Positions 1,132 through 33,250 of a DNA stretch of 33,250 nucleotides are shown here, in pieces. The translations under genes and the position numbers were made by a program. The notes below the pieces were generated by a model that saw only the letters and a program-made list of their open reading frames with translations, was not told where the DNA came from and searched no databases. How positions within the stretch are numbered: the stretch's first letter is position 1; each line of letters starts with the position of its first letter. Origin of the DNA: an uncultured Mycoplasma sp. (GTDB lineage Bacteria; Bacillota_I; Bacilli_A; RF39; UBA660); the NCBI GenBank assembly GCA_964487215.1, contig CAZAPU010000003.1:1-33250 (forward strand). The letters are read 5' to 3'.

Positions 1132-2112
1132 TTATAACCAAACTGCAAAGAATATGCCAAGGAATGAACAAATAATTCCTAATAACCAAAATGCTTTTAC
1201 TATATCTGGTTCTTCAAAACCTCTTTTTTCAAAATGATGATGTATCGGTGAATTTAAAAACACCCTTTTTTTAGTCAATTTAAAATAACAAATTTGAATA
1301 ATTGAACTTGCTGTTTCAATTACAAATGGTAAACAAACAATAAATAAGGTTATCTCTCTTCTAGTAAGTATTGCTACTGTTGCAAGTACTCCTCCTAAAG
1401 CAAGAGAACCAGTATCTCCCATAAATACTCTAGCAGGATATCCATTAAACATTAAAAATCCCAATATTGTTCCAACTAAGATAAAACAAAATATTCCCAT
1501 ATCTTCTTGACCAATTAACAAAGAAATAAGTGCAAATGATATAAAGCTTATTGCAGAAAGACCTCCAGCTAAACCATCTAATCCATCTGTTAAATTAACC
1601 GCATTACTAAATCCAACTAACAATAGTAAAATAAATATTCCATAACCCCATCCTAAATTAATATTAATACCAAGAGTTGAAATAGTTAAATAAGTATTGC
1701 CATCATATTTCATAAAGATAAAAAAGAATACTAAAGCAATTACTATTTGTCCTAAAAACTTTTGTGTAATAGTTAATCCTTCATTTCTACCTTTCTTTAT
1801 ACTTAGATAATCATCTAAAAAGCCAAGCACCGCATATAACAAAAACACTATTAAAACTATGCCTAAATTGTAAGTAAATTCTATTCTCTTTGAAATAACT
1901 AAATAAGCTATAGTAATTATAGTTGGAATAATGAATATAAGTGCTCCCATTGTTGGAGTTCCTTCTTTTTTTCTATGATTTTCTCCTACATACTCGCCTA
2001 TTTTTTGTCCAAAATTAATTTTTTTTAAAAAAGGAATAAGTATTAAACCAAATATAACAGCAGATAAAAATCCAATCATTAATGAAAGAACTACTTTTGT
2101 TAAAATTAACAT
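1132..2112 (-). CDS. mraY: Phospho-N-acetylmuramoyl-pentapeptide transferase MraY
   Basis: 326 aa with motifs KKEGTPTMGA, NAVNLTDGLDGLAGG, VFMGDTGSLALGG and SPIHHHFE. Appears collinear with my recollection of Bacillus MraY over most of its length. GAGGTG SD upstream of the ATG. Confidence 0.95.
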   Translation of the reverse strand: MLILTKVVLSLMIGFLSAVIFGLILIPFLKKINFGQKIGEYVGENHRKKEGTPTMGALIFIIPTIITIAYLVISKRIEFTYNLGIVLIVFLLYAVLGFLDDYLSIKKGRNEGLTITQKFLGQIVIALVFFFIFMKYDGNTYLTISTLGININLGWGYGIFILLLLVGFSNAVNLTDGLDGLAGGLSAISFISFALISLLIGQEDMGIFCFILVGTILGFLMFNGYPARVFMGDTGSLALGGVLATVAILTRREITLFIVCLPFVIETASSIIQICYFKLTKKRVFLNSPIHHHFEKRGFEEPDIVKAFWLLGIICSFLGIFFAVWL

Positions 2113-2174
2113 ATTAACACCTCAATCTAATATATATTATATAATATATATTTGTTTTTTTATATAAATTTTAT

Positions 2175-3971
2175 CTAAAAATTAAATTTGCTGTAAAATC
2201 TATCTTTTTCTATTTTATTGCCCCATTTATTTTTTAGATATTCTTGTTCTTTTTGAAATCTTAATCTTTTCTCTTCAGTTACTTCATATCCTCTAGATTT
2301 GGATTCATAATGATACATTGTTACATTTGGAAGCATTACATTATAGTAACCCTTATCTAATAATTTTATATTCAAATCAACATCATTTAATGCTACTTTT
2401 AAATTTTCATCAAAACCATTAACTTCTAGAAATTTAGATTTTTTTATTAAAAGACAAGCAGCAGTAACTGCAGTATAATCATATGGTATTGCTAATCTGC
2501 CAAATAAACCATTATCATTTTTGTCTGCTGTAACATAAATATGACCAGCAAGACCACCATAGCCTAAAACAACTCCAGCATGTTGAACTTTATTATCTTT
2601 ATACAAAAGTTTTATTCCCACACATCCAACATGATCTTGCATACCATAACCGACCATCTCATCTAACCAATTATTATCTATAATTTCAGTATCATTATTT
2701 AAGAAAACAACATACTCACCATTTGCTCTTTTTACTCCTTCATTATTAATAAATGAGTAATTAAATTCACATTCTAATCTTAATACTTTAAAATTATCAT
2801 GTTCAATCTTATATTTGTTTAATAAATCAAAAGTAGTTTGTTCTGTACTATTATTATCAATTAAAATTATTTCATAATTTTTATAATTAGTTTTTTCATA
2901 AATAGAATCAACACAAGTTTTTAATAGTGAACTCTTATCTTTAATAGGAATTATAATAGATACAAGAGGATTATTATGTTCATAATGAGTAATATAAGCA
3001 CTTACTCTATCACTTGGAACAACTTTACCTTTTATATTTCTTCTTTTTAATGAGTCATTTAAAGCTAAAATAGCCTTATCTTTTGTATAATCTTTATTTC
3101 CAAGATAACCTGCTGTTGATGTTGCTGACATTCTCCAATGATATAAGATTTTTTCTATATGAAAAATTTTATTAGTTTGTTCAACAACTCTTAAAAATAA
3201 ATCATAATCTTGTGAACCATTATATTCACTTCTAAAACCACCTATTTTTTCTATAATACTTTTTCTAATCATTGTTAAATGACATATATAATTTACACTC
3301 ATTAATGTATCAGGAGAGTAATCAGGCTTAAAATGAGGTTCACATCTTAATCCTTTAAAATCAAGTTTATCTTCATCACTATATATCATATCAATTGTTT
3401 TATCATTGTTAAGTACCTCTACAAAATAATATAAGGCATCTTTGCTTATTGTATCATCATTATCAACAAGGACAATAAATTCACCTTTTGCCATATTTAT
3501 TGCAGTATTACTTGCTTCAGAAATATGACCATTTTTCTTCCTATATGTAATTTTTATTTTAGGATTATTTTCGTACTTTTTTAAAGTATAAATTGTTTCC
3601 TCATTTGTTGAACAATCATCTGCAAGACATATTTCAAAATTATTATAAGTTTGATCTAATATTGAATCTAAACACTCAGCTAATAATTTTTCACTTACAT
3701 TATACACAGGAATAACAATTGAAATAAGTGGATTATATTTAAAAGTTTTTCTTTCAAAATCTTTTTCATTTTCCTCTATCCATTTTAAATAAGCTTTTTG
3801 ATTAATAAATAAATTGGAAGTAGCACCTCTTTTAATTACTATCATAGCAGATTTAATATATTTTACTAAGGTTTTTGGTGGTATTAAAAAATGATGTCTA
3901 TTCCAAGCAAAATAAATACCTTTTTTTAATACATAAAATATTTTTTGAAATTTACCAATAAGTTTTTTCAT
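2175..3971 (-). CDS. Two-domain family-2 glycosyltransferase (candidate rhamnan/backbone polymerising GT)
   Basis: Two GT-A modules. The N module has SIVIPVYN, ADDCS, VDNDD and SQDYD. The C module has SIIIPIKD, IDNNS and FLNNDTEI. Paralogue of ORF 18794-20875. The ORF track starts at GTG 3980; I prefer ATG 3971, preceded by GGGTG. Confidence 0.85.
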   Translation of the reverse strand: MKKLIGKFQKIFYVLKKGIYFAWNRHHFLIPPKTLVKYIKSAMIVIKRGATSNLFINQKAYLKWIEENEKDFERKTFKYNPLISIVIPVYNVSEKLLAECLDSILDQTYNNFEICLADDCSTNEETIYTLKKYENNPKIKITYRKKNGHISEASNTAINMAKGEFIVLVDNDDTISKDALYYFVEVLNNDKTIDMIYSDEDKLDFKGLRCEPHFKPDYSPDTLMSVNYICHLTMIRKSIIEKIGGFRSEYNGSQDYDLFLRVVEQTNKIFHIEKILYHWRMSATSTAGYLGNKDYTKDKAILALNDSLKRRNIKGKVVPSDRVSAYITHYEHNNPLVSIIIPIKDKSSLLKTCVDSIYEKTNYKNYEIILIDNNSTEQTTFDLLNKYKIEHDNFKVLRLECEFNYSFINNEGVKRANGEYVVFLNNDTEIIDNNWLDEMVGYGMQDHVGCVGIKLLYKDNKVQHAGVVLGYGGLAGHIYVTADKNDNGLFGRLAIPYDYTAVTAACLLIKKSKFLEVNGFDENLKVALNDVDLNIKLLDKGYYNVMLPNVTMYHYESKSRGYEVTEEKRLRFQKEQEYLKNKWGNKIEKDRFYSKFNF

Positions 3972-4027
3972 ATTATTCACCCATAATAATTATACATTAA
4001 TAAAATTTTATCGTAAAGAAAATATTA

Positions 4028-4053
4028 AAAGAAGCATTAATTAATGCTTCTTT
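4028..4053 (-). terminator. Putative intrinsic terminator overlapping the gtrA-like stop codon
   Basis: Perfect 26-bp palindrome AAAGAAGCATTAATTAATGCTTCTTT. On the minus transcript it is followed by the U-rich run UAAUAUUUUCUU. The TAA stop (4037-4039) lies in the hairpin apex. Confidence 0.55.
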
Positions 4054-4438
4054 CTTCTAAAGTTAATTTTTTTGATATAAAATTATAAATCATTACTATA
4101 ATAGTAGCACCTATCTTAGTAATCATATAATAAACATCTAATATATCTGTACCCAACCACATGATTAATTGATTAATACCAAGACCTATAACACTTAATA
4201 CAATAAATATTATAAAATTTTTTTTCTTACTTGAGTTTTCTTTCACAGTAAATACAAATTTTACACTTGCAAAGTAATTAAAAATTACTGATACTGTAAA
4301 TGAAATAATTGATGAAGTTAAGTAATAAATATGTAAATACTCAGTACATACAAATAGTATTCCATAATCTATTAAAAAAGCTAATCCACCTACTACACCA
4401 AACTTTAAAATTTGTTGAATTAATTTTTTATTTTTCAT
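4037..4438 (-). CDS. GtrA-family small membrane protein (putative polyprenyl-phosphate-sugar flippase)
   Basis: 133 aa with 4 predicted TM helices. N-terminal FGVVGGLAFLIDYGILF signature typical of GtrA. Overlaps the upstream GtrB-like gene by 11 nt. Confidence 0.85.
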   Translation of the reverse strand: MKNKKLIQQILKFGVVGGLAFLIDYGILFVCTEYLHIYYLTSSIISFTVSVIFNYFASVKFVFTVKENSSKKKNFIIFIVLSVIGLGINQLIMWLGTDILDVYYMITKIGATIIVMIYNFISKKLTLEERSIN

Positions 4439-5363
4439 CTGGTTTTTTGCTCCTGATTAAAGTTAACTCAACTGTTTGACGATGCATTTTTACAATAACT
4501 TCTAATAAAATTCCACAAACAAACATCAATGTAGCCACAATTAACATAAATCCAGCAAAAATTAATGTAGGAAATCTTGGTACTAAACCTGTTTGAAAAT
4601 ATTCGATAAAAACAGGAGTACCAAATCCTAATGAAATGCACAAGAACAATAAACCAATAATAGTGAAAAAAATTCCCGGTTTATATTCTTTAAATAATCT
4701 TCCAATTGTTTTTAACACTTTAAATCCATCTTTATATGTATTTAACTTTGAAACACTTCCTTCAGGTCTATCTCTATAACTTACAGGTATTTCTTTTAAT
4801 AAAAAGTTTTTATCTAAAGCATGAATAGTCATTTCTGTTTCAATTTCAAAACCTTTAGATAATACAGGAAAATTTTTTACAAAATCATAACTAAAGGCAC
4901 GATATCCTGTCATAATATCTTTTACTTTTGAATCAAATAATGTATTTATTAGAAATCTAACTAATTTGTTTCCAAAATTATGAAACAATCTTTTATTTTC
5001 AGTAAAATATGTAGATGATAATCTATCACCAATTACCATATCTGCTTTACCTTCTAATACAAAATCACACATTTCTTTAGCATTCTCACAAGGATAAGTG
5101 TCATCACCATCAATCATTAAATAACAATCTGCATCTATATCCTTAAACATACTCCTAATAACATTGCCTTTTCCTTGTTTATATTCATATCTAACAATAG
5201 CTCCTGCTTTCTTAGCAATCTTATCAGTTCCATCACTTGAGTTATTATCATAAACATAAATATCTGCAGTAGGTAAAACTTTTTTATAATCTTTAACAAC
5301 TTTTTCAACAGTCTTACTTTCGTTATAACATGGTATTAAAACAGCTATTTTTTTATCTTTCAT
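4428..5363 (-). CDS. GT2 polyprenyl-phosphate glycosyltransferase (GtrB/CsbB-like)
   Basis: 311 aa. GT-A motifs VLIPCYNE, YDNNSSDGT and IDGDDTYP, plus two C-terminal TM helices, which is the GtrB/DPM1-like architecture. Confidence 0.85.
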   Translation of the reverse strand: MKDKKIAVLIPCYNESKTVEKVVKDYKKVLPTADIYVYDNNSSDGTDKIAKKAGAIVRYEYKQGKGNVIRSMFKDIDADCYLMIDGDDTYPCENAKEMCDFVLEGKADMVIGDRLSSTYFTENKRLFHNFGNKLVRFLINTLFDSKVKDIMTGYRAFSYDFVKNFPVLSKGFEIETEMTIHALDKNFLLKEIPVSYRDRPEGSVSKLNTYKDGFKVLKTIGRLFKEYKPGIFFTIIGLLFLCISLGFGTPVFIEYFQTGLVPRFPTLIFAGFMLIVATLMFVCGILLEVIVKMHRQTVELTLIRSKKPDEK

Positions 5364-5419
5364 TTTTACTTCCTCACTTCCAATTTTATTATATCAAAAA
5401 TCATTTTTAAAATAAATAA

Positions 5420-7345
5420 TTATTCAATAAAAGTAAATTTAAGCTTATTATTGATAATACTAATTTTATATAATTGACCTTCACTAATATTGTTATCAGT
5501 AAATAAATAACCATATTCATCAACAAAACTATCATCAATTTTAATCAAATATAAATAATCATATTTTTTTATTTCATTAATAGCAGCATTATAATCTTTA
5601 ATTGAACTATTTTCTTTATATGGTAAATTAAAATATTTAAGATTAAAGAATCTTGGATTGCTATAGTATTTTATAAAATATGAGTATTCAGAAGTTGCTC
5701 CATCAGCTACCACAAATACTTTACTATCATCTTCTGTATTTTTTATTACTTTTTCTGCATAAATTTCATATTGATTTTGCGGTCCATGTGAAATAGCAGG
5801 AATTAAAATTTTTATTCTTGATGGAATTTGAATTAACAATAGAACAACAAGAATTATTAATAAATCTCTTAAAAAGTTCTTAGAATTTTTTATTTTACTT
5901 TTCAATAGGTAAATAATAAAGAAAATTAACATTATTGCCAATACAAAAGTTGGCATATATCTATCATATGAAGCCAATGCTGGTCCTTCTACTTCTCCAA
6001 AAGAGAACATATATAAAATTAACATTGTAGCAGCATATCCAATAAAACCAACAAAAATCATACTACCAATTCCATAAATTTGATTTTTGTAAAAATAATC
6101 TCTATATTTTTTTGATAAGAATATTGCAATGCATACAGATATTAACATCCATAAAATATAATTAACTCTAATTAAAGAAGCTCCAACATTGTAATTAATT
6201 AAGCTACTTTTAAATGCTATAAATGTTGCTCGTTGATAATCAAAACCTCCATTACCTAATATAATACTTGGTAGTTCAAATACTTTTATGTCTGATAAAG
6301 AAAATTGAGCAGTAGCATTTAATGATTCTGTATATATTCCCCAAATTTTCCAAATAACTAATGGAATTACAATTAACAACACGAAACATTTCAAAAATAC
6401 TAAAATATTTTTTTTAGTAAACATTTTCTTAATTTTTATTTTACTTAAAAACTCTTTAAATTTAACATTTATATTATTTTTTAATAATAAATCTATTATA
6501 AATAAAAATATAATTAATAAGAAAAATGCTAAAGACATTTGCTTTGTAAGTAATAAAAACGATATTGTAATTGACAAATTAAGTAAAACAAAGTTATTTA
6601 AAGTATCTTTATTACTAATAATTAAATAAATTCCATATACAAATACTATTGCCATTACATAATCAGTATAAATCGAATTAATAATGCCATGCATATCAAA
6701 AGATAATATTAATAAATAGAATATTAATATCATTAAAATAATTTTCGTTATTGATTTTATTATTTTTTCTTTGTTAATTTTTATTTCACTAATAATAGGT
6801 ACAAAGAAACTAAATGATAAAATATGTAATGCAGTAATTAAATTTGATTCTGAATATCCTCCACTTAATTTACACCAAAATAATTCAAATAATTGAATTA
6901 TAGGTGGATAATCTTTATGAACCATTAAAGTAGATGCATCAACAGTATAAAACCTATCTAATCTAAGCATTTCTTTTACCATAACACCCCAATGAGAAAA
7001 TTCGTCCCAATCAGAGAATGATCTATTTAAATTAAAAACATAAAATAAAACAAAAATTATTAAGAATACAAAGAAACCCGTAGAAAAATATTTTTCTTTT
7101 ATTTCTCTAAAAAGTGTTTTTCTTTTAATCCAAATTACTATTAGTAATATTGGAAACATAATAGCAAATATTAAATTTAATATTAAGCCAACATAAAATG
7201 TTTTAAATATTAATTGACTGAAAAACAAACAAAATGCTGATAACATCATAACAATTGGTAATGAAATCCCAAATTTCTTTTTACTAATTATTACAAAGGT
7301 TCCTGTTGCAAATAAAAAATAAAATAATGGTACAATAAAATTCAT
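5420..7345 (-). CDS. Polytopic membrane protein, GT-C-like candidate extracytoplasmic glycosyltransferase
   Basis: 641 aa with more than 12 hydrophobic segments. SDWDEFSHWG acidic motif in the first predicted external loop and a ~120-aa soluble C-terminal domain. Sits just upstream of the GtrB/GtrA-like genes in the same operon. Confidence 0.55.
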   Translation of the reverse strand: MNFIVPLFYFLFATGTFVIISKKKFGISLPIVMMLSAFCLFFSQLIFKTFYVGLILNLIFAIMFPILLIVIWIKRKTLFREIKEKYFSTGFFVFLIIFVLFYVFNLNRSFSDWDEFSHWGVMVKEMLRLDRFYTVDASTLMVHKDYPPIIQLFELFWCKLSGGYSESNLITALHILSFSFFVPIISEIKINKEKIIKSITKIILMILIFYLLILSFDMHGIINSIYTDYVMAIVFVYGIYLIISNKDTLNNFVLLNLSITISFLLLTKQMSLAFFLLIIFLFIIDLLLKNNINVKFKEFLSKIKIKKMFTKKNILVFLKCFVLLIVIPLVIWKIWGIYTESLNATAQFSLSDIKVFELPSIILGNGGFDYQRATFIAFKSSLINYNVGASLIRVNYILWMLISVCIAIFLSKKYRDYFYKNQIYGIGSMIFVGFIGYAATMLILYMFSFGEVEGPALASYDRYMPTFVLAIMLIFFIIYLLKSKIKNSKNFLRDLLIILVVLLLIQIPSRIKILIPAISHGPQNQYEIYAEKVIKNTEDDSKVFVVADGATSEYSYFIKYYSNPRFFNLKYFNLPYKENSSIKDYNAAINEIKKYDYLYLIKIDDSFVDEYGYLFTDNNISEGQLYKISIINNKLKFTFIE

Positions 7346-7346
7346 A

Positions 7347-8495
7347 TTAATAATCTCCTTTAAATAAATCTTGATATTTTTTTATTATTATTTTCCAAGT
7401 ATAATTTTCTTTTATTCTTTCTTTAGCAAGTTTTCCTAATTTTTTACTTTCTTTTAATTTTACATCATCATCTAAAAGTTTTTTTAAATTATTTTCTCTA
7501 TCATTAAAATATAAGCAAGTATTTTTTCCAACTTCTTTATTGAAACTAACATTATATAAGATATTTAAATCAGTATAATTCATAGCTTCTAACAATGATG
7601 GATTAGTTCCACCTACTGAATGACCATGAATATAGAGAAAAGCATTTTTTCTTATAACACAAAGTTTTTGCTTGTCATAAACACCTGGAATAATTTTTAT
7701 TTTTTTATAGTTATCTAAATTATATTTATTTTTTAATTCTTCATAATATTTATCATTATTAGTATTAGAAATGATAACTAATTCCTTTTTTGTTTTCGAT
7801 TTTTTAAATTCTTTAATAATAAGATCAAAATTATTTTCTGGAACACATCTTCCTACAACTAATAAATAATTATCTTTTTTTAAATTAAATTCTGATAATA
7901 TTTCTTTTTGATTTAAATTATCTATATTAATTTCATCTGTACCATAAGCAATAAAATATTTAGGCACTTTATTATTTGGATAAGTTTTTTCAAAGTATGT
8001 TTTTATTCCTTCATTATCGCAAACAATTCCATCACAATTTTTTAACATTACTTTTTCTTCATATAAAAAGAATTTTTTTATTGGATAACTCCATTTAGAT
8101 CTTTTCCATTCAAGTCCATCTGGATTTACAAAAACCTTTATATTTAGTTTTTTTATTCTAGATTTCAATATTTTTAAAAATGGCCCCATTTTTAAACCTA
8201 AAATTAAAAATATACAATTACTTAATTTGTTTTGTTTAATATATTTCAAATAAAAATATAATGTTTTTATTGAATATATCATCATAGTAGAACCACCAGT
8301 ATTTTTAGTATAAATAGGATTACATACAATATTATCTTTTTTATATTCTTTTAAATTTTTATCATTAGTTAATTCACTAACAAAAATTTTATTGTCCTTT
8401 TTATCATAATTATCACAAAAATTTTTGGTAAAGGTTTCCCAACCACCATAATTTTTTTTATAGCCCTTTGAACCAATAATAAATATATTATTCAT
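7347..8495 (-). CDS. DUF1972-type GT4 glycosyltransferase (GacB/RgpA/WchF-like rhamnosyltransferase)
   Basis: 382 aa. N-terminus IIGSKGYKKNYGGWETF and C-terminal HGHSVGGTNPSLLEAM are hallmarks of this family as I recall it. Confidence 0.8.
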   Translation of the reverse strand: MNNIFIIGSKGYKKNYGGWETFTKNFCDNYDKKDNKIFVSELTNDKNLKEYKKDNIVCNPIYTKNTGGSTMMIYSIKTLYFYLKYIKQNKLSNCIFLILGLKMGPFLKILKSRIKKLNIKVFVNPDGLEWKRSKWSYPIKKFFLYEEKVMLKNCDGIVCDNEGIKTYFEKTYPNNKVPKYFIAYGTDEINIDNLNQKEILSEFNLKKDNYLLVVGRCVPENNFDLIIKEFKKSKTKKELVIISNTNNDKYYEELKNKYNLDNYKKIKIIPGVYDKQKLCVIRKNAFLYIHGHSVGGTNPSLLEAMNYTDLNILYNVSFNKEVGKNTCLYFNDRENNLKKLLDDDVKLKESKKLGKLAKERIKENYTWKIIIKKYQDLFKGDY

Positions 8496-8513
8496 TTATA
8501 TCACCAATTTAAG

Positions 8514-8543
8514 TATAACAAAAAAATACACATTTGTGTATTT
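8514..8543 (-). terminator. Putative intrinsic terminator after the GT4 gene
   Basis: AAATACACA..TGTGTATTT hairpin (8524-8543), followed on the minus transcript by a run of 7 U. Confidence 0.5.
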
Positions 8544-8554
8544 ATTATATAAAA

Positions 8555-9748
8555 TTAATTCTTATTTATAACTTTTTTTAAAACTCTTTCTAAGTCATCA
8601 AGACATTTTTCCTTTTTAAAATTTTTTAAATAATAATTAATACCATTTTTACCCCATTTTTCTAATTCCTCTTTGTTTTTATAATTATCTAATATAATTT
8701 TAGCAAGATTAGTATAATCAAGTGATTTACAAATCATTCCACAATTTGCTTCTTTTACTACTTCTTTTACTTCCCCATTAATTGCTCCAAAAATAGGTTT
8801 ACCTGCTAACATATAAGATTGTATTTTAGCTGGTAAAGTTGCATTAACTACTTCATTATCAGTCATTGTAATTATAAAAGCATCAGCAAGTTCATAATAC
8901 TTTTTCATCTCATCAACTGGATGATACCCATGAAACATAACATTATTTATTTTATATTTACTTACCATATCTTCACAAGTCTTCTTTGAAAGTCCATCTC
9001 CAACAATATGAAAGATAATATCTTTATTTTTCTTTAATAAATTAGCTGTTTCAATTATAGTTTCTACACTTTGAGCTGGTCCAATATTACCAGCAAAAAC
9101 TATATCAAACTTATCATTTTTATTCCATTTAATATTTTCATAAGCTGACTCTGCATAACTAGGTAAATATATAAAACCTTTGTTTTTTATATGTAATTCT
9201 TTCTCAAAATAGTTTTTAAAAGATTTAGAACTAATAGTTATTAAATCTGCTTTATTATAAGCATTTTTACTCCATTTATAAAGTATTTTATAAGCAAAAG
9301 AATTTTTACTAATACCTCCAGTTGTTATACTAATTGGCCATTGATCTAAAGTATAAATTACAAGTGGGATTTTTTTCATTTTCTTAACTACAATTGCTGG
9401 CCAAGTCATTGTAATTGGTGACAATTGAAACACATAAACAATATCAAAATCTTTTTTCATGAAAAAGGCTTTAATACTTCCAAATATTGCAAACCACATG
9501 TAATTAATTATCATTGAAATTAAAGAGTTACCTCTACCTACTAAAGAACATCTATTAATTTTTACACCATTTATTACTTGATTTCTATTTTTAAACCATT
9601 TATATTCTTTTAAAACCTTACCTTTGGGATAATTAGGAAGCCCTGTTAAAACAGTTACATCATTACCTCTTTTCACTAACTCAAAACAAATATCATTAAT
9701 TCTAAAATTTTCAGGAAAAAAATGTTGACATACTACTAATATTTTCAT
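8555..9748 (-). CDS. GT4 glycosyltransferase (WcaI/WbuB-like)
   Basis: 397 aa. N-terminus MKILVVCQHFFPENFRINDI..LTGLPNYPKGK and a C-terminal GT-B nucleotide-sugar motif region (LPAKIQSYMLAGKPIFG). Confidence 0.85.
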   Translation of the reverse strand: MKILVVCQHFFPENFRINDICFELVKRGNDVTVLTGLPNYPKGKVLKEYKWFKNRNQVINGVKINRCSLVGRGNSLISMIINYMWFAIFGSIKAFFMKKDFDIVYVFQLSPITMTWPAIVVKKMKKIPLVIYTLDQWPISITTGGISKNSFAYKILYKWSKNAYNKADLITISSKSFKNYFEKELHIKNKGFIYLPSYAESAYENIKWNKNDKFDIVFAGNIGPAQSVETIIETANLLKKNKDIIFHIVGDGLSKKTCEDMVSKYKINNVMFHGYHPVDEMKKYYELADAFIITMTDNEVVNATLPAKIQSYMLAGKPIFGAINGEVKEVVKEANCGMICKSLDYTNLAKIILDNYKNKEELEKWGKNGINYYLKNFKKEKCLDDLERVLKKVINKN

Positions 9749-10755
9749 TTCAAGCCCTGAACTTTCTTATTCATATCACTGAGATATTTTTTTTGAGCTA
9801 ATTTATGAATTGGTATGTACATGAATCTAGGTAATAGTTTATATAGAAATCTTTGAATTTTAAAAATTTTTGTTCTGTTTACAATTTTTTTAGGTTCATC
9901 AATCCAAGGAGAAATATTTTGATATTTTGCATATATTTCATTTTGTGGATGAATACTATTTTCTTCCCAAGGCCTACCTGTCATTGCTCCCATACAATGA
10001 TAAATAATTGGATTATCATATTCTTTCTTTATTTCTTCATAAGTATTATAATACTCTGGTTTCAAATCATACATTTTTAATGATTCTTTAATACCATAAA
10101 TATAAAATCCACTATTAAAATTATATTTTAAATTTAGATACATAAATTTATTTCTAAATAATACATTTAATATATCTTGATCAACTGTATAATATCCACA
10201 TCTTTCATTCTTTAGATGATTTATTATTTGATCTTTACACTTATATTTCAACCAGTTTTTTTGATTTATTAAAAGAACTCCTCCATTATAGTACTTATCT
10301 GTTAAAGGAATATTTATAAATGATTTATATGAATTCATTGTACAATCATATGTGGCAGCTAAAATATTATCATTTAAATTCATGTTACATAACTCTTTTA
10401 ATGAACCATTAATTATAGTATCACCATCTAATTGTAGAATTAAATTACTAGGTAAATCTAATTCTGAAACAGCCATAAGTTTAAAATAAGTTGTATAAGT
10501 TCCTTTAAATGGCGATACTTTTAAATCAATTAATTGTTTAAGAATTTTTTTTGTATCAACAATAATAAGATTTCTGTTATATTTTTTTATTACTTCATCA
10601 AATTTATCTAAATTTGATTTACTAATGTTATCATTCAATAAATAAATATTTATTTGATCTAAATCTTTATTGTTTTCTAAAAGTGATGTTACTGATACTC
10701 CAGTAATAGTTGCATAATTATCATTACTTTGATATAAAACATTTAATATATTCAT
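9745..10755 (-). CDS. GT8 glycosyltransferase
   Basis: 336 aa. GT8 motifs SNDNYATITGVSVTSLL, LQLDGDTII, YNGGVLLINQKNW and DQDILNVLF. ATGA overlap with the downstream GT4. Confidence 0.85.
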   Translation of the reverse strand: MNILNVLYQSNDNYATITGVSVTSLLENNKDLDQINIYLLNDNISKSNLDKFDEVIKKYNRNLIIVDTKKILKQLIDLKVSPFKGTYTTYFKLMAVSELDLPSNLILQLDGDTIINGSLKELCNMNLNDNILAATYDCTMNSYKSFINIPLTDKYYNGGVLLINQKNWLKYKCKDQIINHLKNERCGYYTVDQDILNVLFRNKFMYLNLKYNFNSGFYIYGIKESLKMYDLKPEYYNTYEEIKKEYDNPIIYHCMGAMTGRPWEENSIHPQNEIYAKYQNISPWIDEPKKIVNRTKIFKIQRFLYKLLPRFMYIPIHKLAQKKYLSDMNKKVQGLK

Positions 10756-10778
10756 ACTTACACTCCTAATTTATTTTT

Positions 10779-10808
10779 ATTATAGCAAATATTAAATATC
10801 AAAGTAAA
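10779..10808 (-). promoter_or_regulatory. Candidate sigma-A promoter for the GT8-GT4 operon
   Basis: On the minus strand: TTTACT, 18-nt spacer, then extended -10 TGCTATAAT. Leader of about 25 nt to the AGGAG SD. Confidence 0.4.
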
Positions 10809-10813
10809 TAGTA

Positions 10814-10843
10814 TTGACTTATATTTAATTTTTAAGGTATAGT
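10814..10843 (+). promoter_or_regulatory. Candidate sigma-A promoter for the plus-strand SDR gene
   Basis: TTGACT (10814-10819), 18-nt spacer, TATAGT (10838-10843). GGGAGGA SD and ATG at 10862. The leader would be very short. Confidence 0.4.
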
Positions 10844-10861
10844 AATTTACGGGAGGATACT

Positions 10862-11716
10862 ATGAATATATTAGTAACAGGTGCCAATGGTTATATTGGA
10901 CATAATCTTGTAAAAAAATTACTTGATGAAGGTCATCAAGTAATTGCTTGTGGTATTAATAATGATAAAATTGATAAAAGAGCACTATATAAGAATATTA
11001 ATATTTTTGACACTACAGTTGATTTTTATAATGAATTTGATTGCCCAGATGCATTAATTCATCTTGCATGGAGGGATGGTTTTAAACATAATTCAGATAA
11101 ACATATTTCTGATTTGCCTTACCATTACTTATTTTTAAAAAAAATGATTGAATCAGGTACAACAAATATATCTGTATTAGGCACAATGCATGAAATTGGC
11201 TTTTTTGAAGGAAAAATTGATGATAATACACCTTGCAACCCTTTATCAAATTATGGTATTGCAAAAAACACTTTAAGACAATTATTATTTGCCCTAAAAA
11301 CCAAATATGATTTTGATTTAAAATGGCTAAGATGTTTTTACATTTATGGTGATGATAAAAATAATCATTCTATTTTTACCAAATTAATTGAAGCAGAAGA
11401 AGATGGTAAAACAGAATTTCCTTTTACGACTGGAAAAAATCAATATGATTTTACAAATATAAAAGATTTATCTGAAATGATTAGTTTATGTATTCTTCAA
11501 CAAGAAGTAAATGGTATAATTAATTGTTGTTCTGGAGTTCCAATTTCATTAAAAGATAAAGTAGAAAAATTTATTGAGGATAATAATTTTAAAATTAAAC
11601 TTGCATATGGTGTTTATCCTGATAGACCATATGATTCAAAAATTATTTATGGCGATAATACAAAAATTGAACAAATAATACAAAATAAAATTAATATAAG
11701 AAAAAAATCCATTTAA
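10862..11716 (+). CDS. NAD(P)-dependent sugar epimerase/reductase (extended SDR)
   Basis: 284 aa. Rossmann motif VTGANGYIGHNL and catalytic YGIAKNTL (YxxxK). Confidence 0.85.
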   Translation: MNILVTGANGYIGHNLVKKLLDEGHQVIACGINNDKIDKRALYKNINIFDTTVDFYNEFDCPDALIHLAWRDGFKHNSDKHISDLPYHYLFLKKMIESGTTNISVLGTMHEIGFFEGKIDDNTPCNPLSNYGIAKNTLRQLLFALKTKYDFDLKWLRCFYIYGDDKNNHSIFTKLIEAEEDGKTEFPFTTGKNQYDFTNIKDLSEMISLCILQQEVNGIINCCSGVPISLKDKVEKFIEDNNFKIKLAYGVYPDRPYDSKIIYGDNTKIEQIIQNKINIRKKSI

Positions 11717-28256: not shown

Positions 28257-31238
28257 TTACTCTATTGTCTCATTAAAAATTTCTTCTTCAATTGTTGGCT
28301 CTTCTTCAATTATTGGTTCTTCTTCAATAATTTCACTAGATTGTTCAATTTGTTCTTCATTTTCACCAATAATTATTTCTTCAATTAATGAAGCTTGTGT
28401 ATTTTCAATACCTAATATTTCAATAATGGGTTCTTCAATTATTTCTTCAATTTTTGGTGTTTCAACAATAGGTTCTTCAACTATTGGTTCCTCTTCAATT
28501 TTAAGATCACTATTTTCATTAATAGTTGGTGCAATACTTTGAGCACTCATCATAGGTGCAGATCTTAATCTATTGTATTCTCTGTAGCCATCTAAATGCC
28601 ATCCATCACTTGTATTATATTTTAATACATACCATACAATAGTAGTTCCATATCTATTTAATTGTGCAAGTTTATTTCTACCATTAGTTGTAAGATAGTT
28701 ATATATTTCATCATTTAATGCTATATAAGCTTCTCCAGAACCATCATCACCTACAAATTCTTCAACATTATTTCTCTTATTTTCAAATGCTTTAGCTACA
28801 ACTCTGGCAAGAGCTCCTGTTCCATCATCCATAATTTGAACATTAGTTAATCCTGTTGGATCATAATTTTCTGTTGGTGATGGTAGATATATAGGATCTG
28901 GCATCAAATTTTTACTTTTAAGTATATAAGCTGTAGTTGTTGCACTAGTAACTTCTAAATATTCTAAATATACATTTAAATCTGATGTAATGCAGTCAAA
29001 ATTAGTATTCCAACTTGGATTTCTTAAAACTGTTCCTGTTGATAATGTAAAATCTGAACTTACTCTTGGTGCAGTTGCACTTGCTTTATATCTAACAGTT
29101 TGTTCTTTTAAAAGGTTCTCATTATAATTATAGAATCTAACTGTAAAGTATTTCTTAACAACCTTTAATGGAATTATTACTTCAACAGTTTCATAATTAG
29201 AATCTAATGTATAAGTTCCTTTTAAATTATAGTTTCCTACTGCTGATCCTACTGGTAATGTTTCAGTAAATGCAAATCCACTAGGTATTATTGCTTCATC
29301 AGATGATTGATTTTCGTAAATCCAAGTATTTCTTGGAATATTTGGTACCCTTGGTATTGCTTTTATTATTTTAAATGCTTGTGTTGGATTTGTTAATTTA
29401 TAGTTTGTATTTGTTATTGTTGCTGTTGCTGTGTAATCTCCTACATTCTTTCCTGCTCCTGCTACTGTTAATCCTACATTGTCTCCTGACATTACTCCAC
29501 TTATTCCATAAGTTGGTAATTGTTGTTTTCCATTATATACAAACTCTGTTTTTTCTCCCCACAACATTGTTACTTCTTTTTCTTTTATCTTTAATGTTGC
29601 TGTTAATGTTCCTGCATTATGATTTTTGTCTCCTGCAAATGTTGCTGTTACTGTATATGTTCCTACATTTGTTTTTCCGTTTCCTTCATATGTTACTGTC
29701 ATTCCTGCTGGTACATTTATTGCTGTTATACTTTGTTCTCTTTTATTATATGTTACTTCTTTATCATTAAATTTTATTCCACTTAAATCATATTCTGCTT
29801 TTATTATTTTAAATGCCTTGGTTGGATTTGTTAATTTATAGTTTGTATTTGTTATTGTTGCTGTTGCTGTGTAATCTCCTACATTCTTTCCTGCTCCTGC
29901 TACTGTTAATCCTACATTGTCTCCTGACATTACTCCACTTATTCCATAAGTTGGTAATTGTTGTTTTCCATTATATACAAACTCTGTTTTTTCTCCCCAC
30001 AACATTGTTACTTCTTTTTCTTTTATCTTTAATGTTGCTGTTAATGTTCCTGCATTATGATTTTTGTCTCCTGCAAATGTTGCTGTTACTGTATATGTTC
30101 CTACATTTGTTTTTCCGTTTCCTTCATATGTTACTGTCATTCCTGCTGGTACATTTATTGCTGTTATACTTTGTTCTCTTTTATTATATGTTACTTCTTT
30201 ATCATTAAATTTTATTCCACTTAAATCATATTCTGCTTTTATTATTTCATATATTCCTTTATTAAAAGTTACATCATAATTAGTATTTGTATAGCTTCCA
30301 GTAATATCATATTTTTCTACATCACTAGCTTTTGTTGCTTTTGTACTTAAAGTTAATCCAATAGGATATTCTTTCAACTCTACATCTGTTACATTTGAAG
30401 TTAATGCTTTAATATTTTCTCCATATATTCCAGAATTATTATCAATTGTTACAGTTACTTTTCTTCTATTTACAATAAAATCTTTTTCAAGTTTTGTTTC
30501 ATTTCCTAAAATATCAGTTGCTATTACTGTAACTAAATATTTTCCTGCAGTTAAAGGATCAATATTATGTTTAATATCAATCGTTACACCTTTTGTATTA
30601 TAAAATTCATCATGAGCAGTAATTAAACTTTCAAAATCTGGAATTTTATCATATACAATCATTGAATCTACAAAATCATCAATATTAATAGTTGGTGCAT
30701 ATTCATAATCTGGTATTATTTCTTCATCATCAAAATCACTATCAGATTCTAATTCTTCTTCATTAGTATAATGATCTTTGTCTTCATCTCCAAGCGGATC
30801 AAGAATAATCAATGTTCTAGTACCTGTTGCATATAAGCCAGCACTATCTGATGTAGATGTGTAATTAACAATATGAGTTCCTATTGATAATTCCTTAACA
30901 TTAATGTTAGGTTTTACCACTTCAACAACATCATGATCATCTGATACACTAACTCCTGTTAATAGATCATAATCATATCCTTTTACAACTTTTACTGTTG
31001 TAGGATTGATAACCATAATTGGTGCAGCATTATTTACTACAACTTGTGGACTATCATTACTATCGTCAAGTTCAACATTATTTAATGGTTGATAAATTGT
31101 TTCACCAACAACTGGTGTTATTACATCTTCTGGTAATTCTGTTCCTTTCTCAAGTTTTTCACCTGGGTTTGCAAATGTAAACATAAAGAAACCCATAATT
31201 AGAAATATTACTAGTGCAAATATTTTTTTCTTATCCAT
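28257..31238 (-). CDS. Large secreted/surface protein with Ig-like and MBG-type repeat domains and an acidic C-terminal tail
   Basis: N-terminal signal peptide or anchor (KKKIFALVIFLIMGFFMFTFA). Two Ig-like modules. Repeated about 70-aa MBG-like modules (..YG/YNG...GD..GL.....VG.Y..T......NY). Acidic EEPI(V/I)E tail. No LPXTG motif. The true start is probably ATG 31238, 7 nt after GGAGGG; the ORF-track start is TTG 31253. Confidence 0.85.
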   Translation of the reverse strand: MDKKKIFALVIFLIMGFFMFTFANPGEKLEKGTELPEDVITPVVGETIYQPLNNVELDDSNDSPQVVVNNAAPIMVINPTTVKVVKGYDYDLLTGVSVSDDHDVVEVVKPNINVKELSIGTHIVNYTSTSDSAGLYATGTRTLIILDPLGDEDKDHYTNEEELESDSDFDDEEIIPDYEYAPTINIDDFVDSMIVYDKIPDFESLITAHDEFYNTKGVTIDIKHNIDPLTAGKYLVTVIATDILGNETKLEKDFIVNRRKVTVTIDNNSGIYGENIKALTSNVTDVELKEYPIGLTLSTKATKASDVEKYDITGSYTNTNYDVTFNKGIYEIIKAEYDLSGIKFNDKEVTYNKREQSITAINVPAGMTVTYEGNGKTNVGTYTVTATFAGDKNHNAGTLTATLKIKEKEVTMLWGEKTEFVYNGKQQLPTYGISGVMSGDNVGLTVAGAGKNVGDYTATATITNTNYKLTNPTKAFKIIKAEYDLSGIKFNDKEVTYNKREQSITAINVPAGMTVTYEGNGKTNVGTYTVTATFAGDKNHNAGTLTATLKIKEKEVTMLWGEKTEFVYNGKQQLPTYGISGVMSGDNVGLTVAGAGKNVGDYTATATITNTNYKLTNPTQAFKIIKAIPRVPNIPRNTWIYENQSSDEAIIPSGFAFTETLPVGSAVGNYNLKGTYTLDSNYETVEVIIPLKVVKKYFTVRFYNYNENLLKEQTVRYKASATAPRVSSDFTLSTGTVLRNPSWNTNFDCITSDLNVYLEYLEVTSATTTAYILKSKNLMPDPIYLPSPTENYDPTGLTNVQIMDDGTGALARVVAKAFENKRNNVEEFVGDDGSGEAYIALNDEIYNYLTTNGRNKLAQLNRYGTTIVWYVLKYNTSDGWHLDGYREYNRLRSAPMMSAQSIAPTINENSDLKIEEEPIVEEPIVETPKIEEIIEEPIIEILGIENTQASLIEEIIIGENEEQIEQSSEIIEEEPIIEEEPTIEEEIFNETIE
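29359..30247. repeat. Two tandem copies (plus 13 bp of a third) of a 438-bp unit inside the surface-protein gene
   Basis: 29359-29796 and 29797-30234 read identical by eye except at 29379, 29381 and 29382 versus 29817, 29819 and 29820 (one Thr-synonymous change, plus Gln versus Lys). Each unit encodes 146 aa. The duplicated antisense ORFs in the track confirm the period. Confidence 0.95.
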
Positions 31239-31383
31239 AATCTTTCCCTCCAAATAAAAAACATTTAAAATACTTTAAATGCAACTGACTACCATAACAT
31301 ATAATGTTTTAGGTTCTTAAGCTTTGCGTCCTTTAATTTCTTAAAGTTTGCCTAAAAAATTTATATAAAATTTATTTATAAAT

Positions 31384-31957: not shown

Positions 31958-32884
31958 TTAATCTCCCATTAGTAGCCTAATCTTACCTGTCTCATAATAT
32001 CGTTCCCCAGCAACAGGTGTTTGCTCTTTTACAATTTCCCCACCCCCCACATATTCTATATCAAATCCTGTTAATAGTTTTTTTGCTTCATTCTTGGTTA
32101 AACCAATAACATTTTCTACCTCATAATATTTTTTATCATACCATTCATATGATTTCTCTTTTTGATCTGATTGTTTCTCTATATTTAAAACACTGATAAT
32201 ATCTAATAATATTTTTCTTACAAATGGTGTTGTTGTATAACTAGAAAGAAGTGCTGTATTTTTTGGATTATCGATTGCCAAATACAAAACTACTTCAGGA
32301 TCGTTACTTGGCAAAACTGCCATAAAACTCATTATATAATTATTATCTAAATAAACACCATTATTTACTTTTTGAGCTGTTCCTGTTTTACCTCCTATTC
32401 TATATCCATCAATATATGTTAATTTTCCTCCACCATTTGATACAACACTTTCCAAGGCCATTCTCATAATTGCACTAGTATTTTTACTAATAGTTTTTCT
32501 AACTAATGTTTTATCATTACTCAAAAAAATATTATTTGTATTACTATCTAAAATACTTTTTAAAACATAAGGTTGATATAAATATCCTCCATTAACTATA
32601 GAAGAAACTGCCGTCACTTGTTGAATAGCTGTAACACTAACACCTTGCCCAAAAGCAGTAGTGGCTAATTCTAAATCTTTAACTACATCTAAATTAAATA
32701 TAATGCCCTCACCTTCACCACTTAAATCTATACCAGTTTTTTCTCCAAATCCAAATAAATCTATATACGAAAACAATTTTTCTTTACCTAATTTAAATCC
32801 TAATGATACAAACCCAGGATTCGTTCTGGTGAATACGGCAACATTTTGAATCGTCGTTTTCCTTGATATTACTGATATCTCCAA
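31958..32884 (-). pseudogene. 3' fragment of a class B penicillin-binding protein gene (SpoVD/PBP2B-like): distal transpeptidase part plus one PASTA domain
   Basis: NPGFVSLGFKLGKEKLFSYIDLFGFGEKTGIDL (SxN-box region), GGKTGTAQ (KTG box) and a C-terminal PASTA-like segment (VIGLTKNEAKKLL...). No membrane anchor, dimerisation domain or SxxK box. Frame closed by TAG at 32888-32890. The nominal TTG start has no SD. Confidence 0.8.
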
Positions 32885-33250
32885 TACCTACATTTATGTT
32901 CTCGTATAGACCAGAACGAATATTCTGGTCTATACAGGAACATTTTTGATTAAAAGAAATTTCATCACTTTGTAATGAATTCACATCTACTTTTATAGTA
33001 GGTTTTTCTTTCTTTTCATATAAGTCTAATTCTCTATCAATTATGTCTGTATTAAAGTTAAAATATACTACCATTCTTACATGTTTTCTATTATTATTTA
33101 CTTTAGTTATTTCAATTCTATCAATTAATAATTTAATTAGATGTGGTAGTTCATTCTTAATATCTACCTTCTTTGTTAAAGCTTTGCTTAACTCATTCAT
33201 TTTTTCATTCATTTTTTTGATTTCTATTTCTTTATTATCTATCCTTTTTA
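32793..33250 (-). CDS. C-terminal part of a putative large serine recombinase (partial; continues beyond the window)
   Basis: The frame is open from the window edge (..KRIDNKEIEIKKMNEKMNELSKALTKK, coiled-coil-like). It is followed by LIKLLIDRIEITKV..VRMVVYFNF, reminiscent of large serine recombinase tails. The catalytic domain is not in the window, so the call is tentative. Confidence 0.45.
   Translation of the reverse strand, partial: KRIDNKEIEIKKMNEKMNELSKALTKKVDIKNELPHLIKLLIDRIEITKVNNNRKHVRMVVYFNFNTDIIDRELDLYEKKEKPTIKVDVNSLQSDEISFNQKCSCIDQNIRSGLYENINVGIGDISNIKENDDSKCCRIHQNESWVCIIRI
32885..33250. mobile_element. Inferred end of an integrated element (prophage or skin-like intervening element) interrupting the PBP gene
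   Basis: PBP homology stops around 32820-32890, and the recombinase-like gene reads towards the junction. The exact boundary is not determinable from this window. Confidence 0.4.
32904..32936. repeat. Perfect 13-bp inverted repeat with 7-nt spacer at the element/PBP boundary
   Basis: GTATAGACCAGAA cgaatat TTCTGGTCTATAC. A related third copy lies at 32819-32836. Confidence 0.9.

Follow-up and report, generated by a model that had tools for sequence, protein, structure and literature searches.

The window analysed here, 33,250 nt at 24% G+C, is the entire public contig CAZAPU010000003.1 of an uncultured Mycoplasma sp., and at its right-hand end it holds an incomplete gene for a class B penicillin-binding protein (PBP) of the SpoVD type, together with the end of a gene for a large serine recombinase (LSR). 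The nominal PBP open reading frame (ORF), at 31958-32884 on the minus strand, encodes 308 aa from a TTG start, and its translation includes GGKTGTAQ and NPGFVSLGFKLGKEK. The initial annotation took this ORF for the distal part of such a protein with one PASTA domain, and the profile searches bear this out: Pfam Transpeptidase matched over profile positions 103-298 of 299 only (E = 6.6e-45), NCBIfam spoVD_pbp (TIGR02214) over positions 344-636 only (314.7 bits), and one C-terminal PASTA domain was recognised (Pfam, E = 8e-7). PBP sequence begins at the SxN Asn, includes KTG and the PASTA domain and ends at a normal stop codon, and a TAG at 32888-32890, confirmed in the translation, shuts the frame upstream. 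The catalytic triad is incomplete, with KTG retained and SxxK absent. The SxN-box region, annotated as kept, is represented by its Asn, the Ser-Cys belonging to the missing 5' half. The membrane anchor and the dimerisation domain are absent as well, as had been stated, and a tblastn search with residues 1-360 of an intact orthologue as the query found no N-terminal PBP half in the 33-kb window.

Alignments with intact orthologues begin at or near residue 21 of the nominal ORF and place the Asn codon at 32819-32821. Downstream of this point, the window sequence shares 74-86% identity with the corresponding stretch of intact genes (about 640 codons) in related metagenome-assembled genomes (MAGs). 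The residues ahead of the Asn codon contain no PBP sequence and are element DNA, the left arm and flank of the attachment site attP, read in the PBP frame. Their last part, IQNVAVFTRT, was also found before NPGF in unrelated host alleles carrying the same type of element. Exact look-ups of the 135-aa and 308-aa window proteins gave no match, and a look-up with the signal peptidase returned only short contigs from the other side.

The second ORF is open from 33248 to a stop codon at 32793-32795 in another frame and includes LIKLLIDRIEITKV and VRMVVYFNF. It had been described as abutting the PBP gene; its strand, its open end at the contig edge and its C-terminal sequence were correctly given, but it overlaps the nominal PBP ORF by 92 nt, crosses the host-element junction attR, and ends in nine codons of host DNA. 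The proposal that its tail is of the LSR kind is supported by alignment with LSRs at the same position in two relatives, residues 455-562 of the 578-aa LSR of L021 (38% identity, E = 2e-19, BLASTP) and the LSR of L039 (E = 2e-13); here and below, L numbers denote loci in relatives or on metagenome contigs and P numbers denote protein clusters. A domain search with the 151-aa tail alone returned only a sub-threshold DUF4368 match (17 bits against a Pfam cut-off of 25), whereas the full-length homologues carry Resolvase, Recombinase and Zn_ribbon_recom domains. The tail is 96% identical to those of P0001 and of the LSRs of L084-L088, and protein search gave 94-98% identity for the tails of P0001-P0004; the N terminus of the L084-L088 LSR is in turn 84% identical to that of L021. 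Judged by this homology of its coiled coil and tail to bona fide LSRs, the ORF reaching the contig end is an LSR C terminus. Pseudogenisation of the LSR in L084-L088 was considered and rejected, as only 100-N scaffold gaps break the gene. The C terminus of the LSR varies with the state of the site: comparison of P0001 with P0002 shows nine host codons past the crossover in attR, while in P0002 (197 aa), in which the LSR is joined to the left end of the element, the tail comprises about 60 residues. Features of the window and of the elements in relatives are collected in Table 1.

Table 1. Features at the right end of the window and elements interrupting the orthologous gene in relatives
Feature	Sequence	Position	Size	Strand	Basis or content
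3' portion of SpoVD-type class B PBP gene	window	31958..32821	287 codons + stop	minus	Pfam, NCBIfam, identity to orthologues
Leading residues of nominal ORF (TTG...FTRT), element-derived	window	32822..32884	~20 residues (21 codons by coordinates)	minus	start of alignments
attR	window	32796..32846		minus	junctions compared with intact attB in 12 orthologues and with attL/attR/attP of relatives
C-terminal part of LSR gene	window	32793..33250	151 codons + stop	minus	BLASTP, identity to P0001 and L084-L088, weak DUF4368 match
Inner attP-like palindrome in recombinase coding region	window	32896..32943	21-nt arms, 6-nt centre	.	arms 90% complementary
SxxK-type element	L090	1525-11041	~7.6 kb		5' half, then adjoining 576-aa LSR, then helix-turn-helix (HTH) and AAA_21 cargo
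SxxK-type element	L092-L095	5180-11014	~3.9 kb		502-aa ORF, 54-aa ORF, 546-aa LSR
Element	L039		2987 bp		RelB/ParE toxin-antitoxin (TA), 78-aa ORF, LSR
Element	L021		4773 bp		NUDIX and small ORFs
Element	L116		~3.7 kb		transglutaminase-like gene, 81-aa ORF, LSR
Element	L104		10.1 kb, complete		L021-type LSR
Window-type element	L109 + L085		~13 kb		pieced from L109 (left) and L085 (right)

A scan of one genome per species yielded 197 relatives, recorded as 'uncultured Mycoplasma sp.', 'Bacilli bacterium' or 'Mycoplasma sp. CAG:611'; the best 80 loci were kept, and the whole ORF was measured for the 37 best. According to GTDB, family CAG-611 belongs to the order RF39 (PMC8035907), to which the organism of the window presumably belongs as well. 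Most of the 37 best loci contain an uninterrupted ORF of 634-672 aa. Where intact orthologues read ...QVFENSC|NPGFV..., the window reads IQNVAVFTRT|NPGFV..., and 12 of the 80 species representatives are cut at this same codon, ENSC|NPGF (L006, L007, L009, L010, L021, L029, L039, L040, L060, L065, L083 and the L084 type, the last on metagenome scaffolds). The 3' halves of these 12 are all open at full length (285-294 aa). A short gene standing alone was not found among the relatives, which have the gene either whole, at about 640 aa, or broken at the same point beside LSR or other element DNA.

In L021 and L039, the 578-aa ORF that ends across the junction has Resolvase (PF00239; E = 1.1e-27 and 4.2e-29, respectively), Recombinase (PF07508; 4e-19 and 2e-18) and Zn_ribbon_recom domains. 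By tblastn, an LSR also lies directly upstream of the 3' half in L029, L065, L040, L083, L060 and L006, and precomputed Pfam annotation lists Recombinase and zinc-ribbon (PF13408) domains in L090, L092, L113 and L116. The 5' half of the gene, predicted to lie at the far end of the element, is not on the window contig, but in both relatives a 5' half that covers residues 3-355 of the intact protein is present upstream on the same strand, at a distance of 4.8 kb in L021 and 3.0 kb in L039. An LSR with its domains beside the break, a matching 5' half across the element and the absence of a free-standing short gene support the reading as an intervening element.

Alignment with the uninterrupted orthologues, which the initial annotation had suggested as a way to the attachment sites, defined attR in the window and both attL and attR in L021 and L039. 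The two relatives have ...CTCATGC AA TCTTGGAGTAAATACAGGAACAC at attL and GTGTTCGTGTATTGACACAAAGC AA CCCAGGATT at attR. Joining the halves in silico at the shared AA yields ORFs of 636 aa (L021) and 634 aa (L039) that read ENSCNPGF without a stop, and these excision products, like the intact orthologues, have the complete triad SxxK, SxN and KTG. The deduced attP is an imperfect inverted repeat around AA, with arm identities of 23/30 in L021 and 19/30 in L039, compared with 11/30 for attB. The window attR consists of the left arm TGTTGCCGTATTCACCAGAACG, which is element DNA, and the right arm TCCTGGGTTTGTATC, which is host DNA, and the crossover dinucleotide AA (minus strand) at 32820-32821 forms the first two bases of the Asn codon. 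This centring follows from a window-type joint on metagenome contig L089, TGTTGCCGTATTCACCAGAACG AA TCTTCTGGTGAATACAGGAACA, with 22/30 symmetry (at 1389-1434; the LSR of this contig is 5'-truncated, or the contig is chimeric). The other end of the window element would accordingly be expected to carry the joint ...GAAAAYTCNTGY AA TCTTCTGGTGAATACAGGAACAC. A scan of metagenome contigs with the right arm gave 17 loci, which comprise 15 attL junctions with diverse host 5' halves and two attP-like joints. The attP-like joints (L089, L097, L111) were considered as proof of excised circles and rejected as such, since L097 shows the same joints in tandem arrays; in this contig (reverse complement, 1835-11520), the site is occupied by two elements in tandem.

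The recombinase coding region of the window contains, about 100 bp from attR, a further attP-like palindrome, complete and inverted, which resembles the reverse complement of the L089 attP. Its translation is KCSCIDQNIRSGLYEN, which is related to the KCCRIHQNE encoded by the real left arm. The palindrome is also present in L085 and L089 and is absent from other LSR subtypes, which confines it to window-type elements. An origin from a tandem array followed by deletion fits poorly, as the palindrome centre is inverted.

The junction sequence is common to independent assemblies, L010, L084-L088 and six protein clusters among P0017-P0125. L084-L088 share the junction sequence of the window, yet their PBP allele is only 50% identical to that of the window; the occurrence of the same LSR type in hosts with such different PBPs indicates that the elements move horizontally. 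Interrupted species are scattered in a neighbour-joining tree of the 3' halves, and several have near-identical intact sisters (L009/L011, L010/L023 and L029/L032), which implies that most insertions are of recent date or that loss is frequent. In pairwise comparisons of the 3' halves, dN/dS was 0.04-0.18 between interrupted and intact alleles, except for L010/L023 (0.26 at a dS of only 0.03), and 0.02-0.14 between intact alleles, and thus gave no indication of decay. Of the 120 protein clusters that best matched the 3' half, 48 have foreign residues right before NPGF, the window-type peptide ...FTRT occurring in 6 of these 48, and 26 start just after NPGF; as the protein search yields only proteins near the length of the query, these counts show many independent interrupted alleles and not their frequency, and the scarcity of full-length matches in the search has the same cause. 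A short relic reading ...VFLNTCNPGFV* lies upstream of the intact PBP gene in L017 (58-145). The relic is similar to the attB region VFENSCNPGFV, and an earlier rearrangement may have left it as a scar.

In a further 31 of the 120 clusters, the protein begins at the SxxK motif, 59-60 or 51 residues ahead of NPGF, and reads MVGTFKII where intact proteins read PGSTFKII. The contigs show a second LSR lineage inserted within the T-F-K codons with the shared core ACATTYAA, as exemplified by L090 and L092-L095 (Table 1), and the 3' protein of L092-L095 is present on 41 contigs from many samples. Interruption by this lineage was also seen at L012 and L019, at about 89-110. In L099 (reverse complement, 2181-7959), the PBP gene is in three pieces, with an SxxK-type element after about residue 302 and an SxN-type element after residue 355.

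Directly upstream of the LSR in L021, L039, L085, L065, L040 and L083/L060, and also in L092 of the SxxK lineage, lies a small ORF of 45-82 aa with the motif RLIxNKELYxxKxI, for which no family match was found. It is preceded in four of five elements by a CATAnnnT-like motif resembling a -10 box, at a similar distance from the Shine-Dalgarno (SD) sequence. LSRs need a directionality factor for excision (PMC5499854, PMC5595907), and by its position and size the small ORF is a candidate for this function.

The elements in relatives measure between 3 kb and more than 10 kb; the window type was pieced together at about 13 kb from an overlap of L109 and L085 that includes the methylase gene, a 158-aa ORF and the coupling protein gene; the two contigs come from different samples, so that this size is a deduced one. 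The smallest element, in L039, carries an addiction module on a minimal intervening element (7274-7877). Cargo of the window type consists of genes for a DUF5655 protein, a GyrI-like protein, a glyoxalase, PadR, HTH and PAP2 proteins, an N6/N4 methylase, a coupling protein of a type IV secretion system (T4SS; TraG/VirD4 type, 676 aa), which adjoins the LSR in L085, and a 71-aa ORF, followed by the LSR. In one relative, L109 (stored strand minus), a 640-aa EF-G-like protein (4639-6561) and a streptomycin adenylyltransferase ANT(6) (3467-4324; E = 2e-115) are encoded; the N terminus of the former is what we take to be Tet(M)-like, while Pfam shows only an EF-G architecture. Resistance cargo of the window-type element is known from this relative. 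Neither relaxase nor T4SS genes were seen in the 13 kb pieced from L109 and L085, and the window itself contains no coupling protein, relaxase or T4SS gene. The LSRs are less than 40% identical to any annotated phage or plasmid protein, and the best NCBIfam matches of the L021 LSR (CcrC, CcrB and XisF) reach at most 125 bits, far below the cut-offs of 700-900. From their gene content, the elements are of the integrative or mobilizable type and not prophages, and the window type, which moves between distant hosts, is probably mobilizable. L116 and L117 have an identical 3' half protein and the same LSR with different cargo upstream: L116 has the 5' half nearby, whereas L117 encodes a UvrD helicase among other proteins and shows no 5' half over 10 kb. 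Element content thus varies within a species.

These observations make it very probable that the window contig ends inside an integrative element that has its LSR gene at the right end and splits a SpoVD-type PBP gene at the Asn codon of SxN. Comparison of the junctions indicates that this site is used recurrently and that excision at the central AA would restore the gene. By analogy with established LSRs, the recombinase alone would have catalysed integration between attP and attB, with highly conserved catalytic-motif codons serving as attB across many species, and excision between attL and attR would require the directionality factor for which the small ORF is the candidate. While the element is integrated, the PBP gene is presumably off, because the reading frame of the 5' fragment closes 15-20 codons beyond the junction and that of the 3' fragment lacks a credible start codon or SD sequence. 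The element might thereby ride in a gene needed only for cortex synthesis and be excised in the terminal mother cell, where the gene would be restored.

Which PBP is interrupted bears on this proposal. L009 has a separate mraZ-rsmH cluster, downstream of which a PBP of 710 aa is encoded; this protein is matched best by the division-type model PBP2X, and the interrupted gene is thus a second class B PBP. The intact orthologue L005, which has one PASTA domain, scores 689.6 bits with the NCBIfam spoVD equivalog, the cut-off being 688. In the window, L009 and L092, the PBP gene is followed by mraY and a gene for a SEDS protein. Members of RF39 are predicted to sporulate, and a 'reduced presence of spoVD' has been reported for them (PMC10868615), to which split genes may contribute. 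Since the target is a SpoVD-like paralogue and not the division PBP, and since RF39 are predicted spore formers, a sporulation-timed reconstitution, as for skin, SPbeta or gin, would be the most likely role of the elements, although we hold this with considerable doubt. In its favour are the kind of gene that is hit, the fact that two LSR lineages have converged on this gene, the intact state of both gene halves, and the retention of an intact LSR and small ORF in immobile mini-elements of 3-5 kb. The whole proposal, a new and widespread LSR family in RF39 gut bacteria that uses SxN and SxxK codons of spoVD as attachment sites and rebuilds spoVD by excision in the mother cell, is put forward as a tentative one.

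Several points weigh against it. For the window's own element, the contig ends before attL, the 5' half, the LSR's catalytic part and the small ORF, all of which are read from relatives. Tandem arrays can account for the attP-like joints, and excision by these LSR elements is predicted from their junctions. The spoVD call sits at the very edge of its cut-off; the SEDS protein matches SpoVE best (423.8 bits) but stays below the cut-off of 448.8, and it passes that of FtsW (392.3 against 337.5), so that PBP and SEDS protein could be an elongation or division pair in a reduced genome. The sporulation of RF39 is a genomic prediction only. The CATA motif is weak evidence in DNA of 24% G+C, and control by sigma-E or sigma-K cannot be claimed from it. 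dN/dS has little power as a test of continued function because the insertions look recent. In L009 (8990-10025), cut at the same codon, no LSR adjoins the junction and a DUF5655 gene, the first cargo gene at the left end of the L109 element, abuts the 3' half on the opposite strand, an arrangement that may reflect inversion or decay.

Some of these points would suit a plain insertional knock-out, which we regard as a serious possibility. A selfish element would have found a conserved landing pad and the PBP would be lost, with excision occurring only upon transfer and without a developmental link; hosts would tolerate the loss, either having a sufficient substitute in another class B PBP or having no need to sporulate in the gut. 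The existence of a second class B PBP suits this explanation, as do cargo typical of mobile elements (TA modules, methylase, T4SS coupling protein, tet-like gene and ANT(6)), tandem and double insertions (L097 and L099), the L009 junction, and a putative promoter region in which only the weak CATA motif, and no clear sporulation promoter, stands out. The scattered distribution of interrupted species with near-identical intact sisters, combined with selfish cargo (TA and resistance genes), would likewise fit recent and purely parasitic insertions. However, the PBP gene is conserved in all related species examined, which implies that it matters, and neither half is frameshifted or stopped in any interrupted copy. 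One species' split allele occurs on 41 contigs from many samples, which is not easily reconciled with simple loss, and the same applies to the mini-elements, which have no transfer genes and still keep the LSR and small ORF intact. The convergence of two unrelated LSR lineages on one gene is, moreover, the pattern known from mother-cell sporulation genes (PMC4191935, PMC5595907).

We consider it improbable that the element acts as a reversible switch in growing cells, resembling active lysogeny, in which the PBP would be toggled in a subpopulation independently of sporulation and wall synthesis or beta-lactam susceptibility would be altered. The break does separate the catalytic motifs, which clean excision would reunite, attP-like joints occur in metagenomes, and cells that lose the element after excision could be penalised by its TA modules. 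However, LSRs react in a strongly directional manner, the joints are explained by tandem arrays, and small elements without replication functions would be lost on excision in dividing cells. Integration of a temperate phage, which the initial annotation had offered as the simpler possibility of a prophage-inactivated gene, is very unlikely. LSRs are common phage integrases, and phage recombinases are among the closest annotated relatives of those described here (29-38% identity). Yet the complete elements L021, L039, L092 and L116 contain no capsid, tail, terminase or lysis genes and gave only weak PHROG matches, whole elements measure 3-10 kb and the pieced window type about 13 kb, with a T4SS coupling protein instead of packaging genes, and the attP arm had no match in 2.9 million viral contigs. 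That the split is an assembly artefact, or that the PBP-like gene is naturally short, can be dismissed almost entirely, since, although a mere 430 nt lie between junction and contig end and repeats are frequent break points of MAG contigs, the identical junction recurs in independent assemblies and samples, relatives have the intact gene or the same break beside element DNA, usually an LSR, and the nominal start is element DNA.

Sporulation-timed reconstitution of spoVD, if it holds, would add to a known class of rearrangements. Described targets of gene-intervening elements are sigK, spsM, spoVFB, spoVR, gerE and yabG (PMC4191935, PMC5595907, PMC10747680). No spoVD or other PBP target was found in the literature searched, which is not the whole literature, and the initial annotation likewise named no PBP gene among the described targets. 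The skin element in sigK is excised by SpoIVCA in B. subtilis and by CD1231/CD1234 in C. difficile, and SPbeta in spsM by SprA/SprB (PMC4191935, PMC5499854, PMC5025042). Like these, the elements described here are LSR elements inside a sporulation-type coding sequence with the recombinase gene beside one att site, precise excision would rebuild the ORF (in silico, in relatives), and a small directionality factor is expected. They differ in their target, a SpoVD-type PBP, in their hosts, uncultured RF39-like gut Bacilli, and in not being prophage-like; their LSRs are distant (<40% identity), and whereas excision of skin and SPbeta is timed to sporulation, the present elements are known from sequence alone.

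The gin element in gerE of Bacillus cereus (GirC/GirX) measures 28.6 kb, has three recombinases and occurs in few Bacillus strains (PMC5595907). It is likewise a non-phage element with a serine recombinase and a small accessory factor, and its crossover lies at a central AA in an imperfect inverted repeat. In contrast, the elements described here are 3 to about 13 kb in size, have one LSR and are found in numerous species, with cargo that comprises TA modules, a methylase, a T4SS coupling protein and resistance genes. Split sporulation genes whose elements excise as circles are also known from yin in yabG of Clostridium botulinum, vfbin in spoVFB and vrin in spoVR (PMC10747680, PMC4191935). 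Those elements are prophage-like and have other targets, and yin was found in one strain, whereas the RF39 family occurs widely and inserts into one gene at two separate hot spots.

An LSR as the sole integrase of small resistance-carrying elements is familiar from Tn4451 (TnpX), Tn5397 (TndX) and SCCmec (Ccr), the last of which inserts at the 3' end of rlmH without destroying the gene; to our knowledge, none of these targets codons of PBP catalytic motifs. Tandem accretion, as in L097, is reminiscent of SCC composites, although the Ccr matches of the L021 LSR are far below threshold and do not place it in that family. In Listeria, excision of the comK prophage (A118/phi10403S) restores the gene during intracellular growth in what is termed active lysogeny (Feiner et al. 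2015, cited in PMC10747680). This is a similar case of a mobile element in a coding gene, but the comK element is a phage. The mechanism as such is therefore known, and what is new is the target gene, the host order, the location of the att sites at motif codons, the double hot spot, and the mobilizable cargo, which includes resistance genes in one relative.

The genes known to be split by serine-recombinase elements are thus extended by a SpoVD-type PBP and by an uncultured host order, at an unusually high prevalence (SxN is the site of the cut in 12 of the 80 species representatives, and SxxK in further cases). The att sites at catalytic-motif codons illustrate how an element can secure a landing pad that is conserved across species. 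Annotation pipelines will miss such split genes or call them partial, which affects MAG-based predictions of sporulation. The resistance genes in one window-type relative, together with the spread of the element across PBP alleles only 50% identical, are relevant to the flow of resistance genes in the gut, and the LSRs with defined attP/attB pairs are new and distinct candidates for genome-engineering tool sets. If excision in the mother cell holds true, a peptidoglycan synthase would join the sporulation genes controlled by DNA rearrangement, and mobilizable elements, some with resistance genes, and not only defective prophages, could fill the role of an intervening element.

Two further features of the window lie to the left of the split gene. 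Between the PBP gene and mraY-SEDS, which are adjacent in most relatives, the window holds a cluster of about 25 kb for a rhamnose-type cell-wall polysaccharide (29-27188) with genes for RmlA, a fused RmlC/D, many glycosyltransferases, an ABC-2 exporter, DUF2142 and GtrA proteins and a pyruvyl transferase. The ORF at 28257-31253 (minus strand) encodes a 998-aa MBG-domain surface protein and contains a 438-bp tandem duplication (29358-30247; 2.0 copies, 99% identical), which gives rise to two near-identical blocks of 146 residues in the protein.

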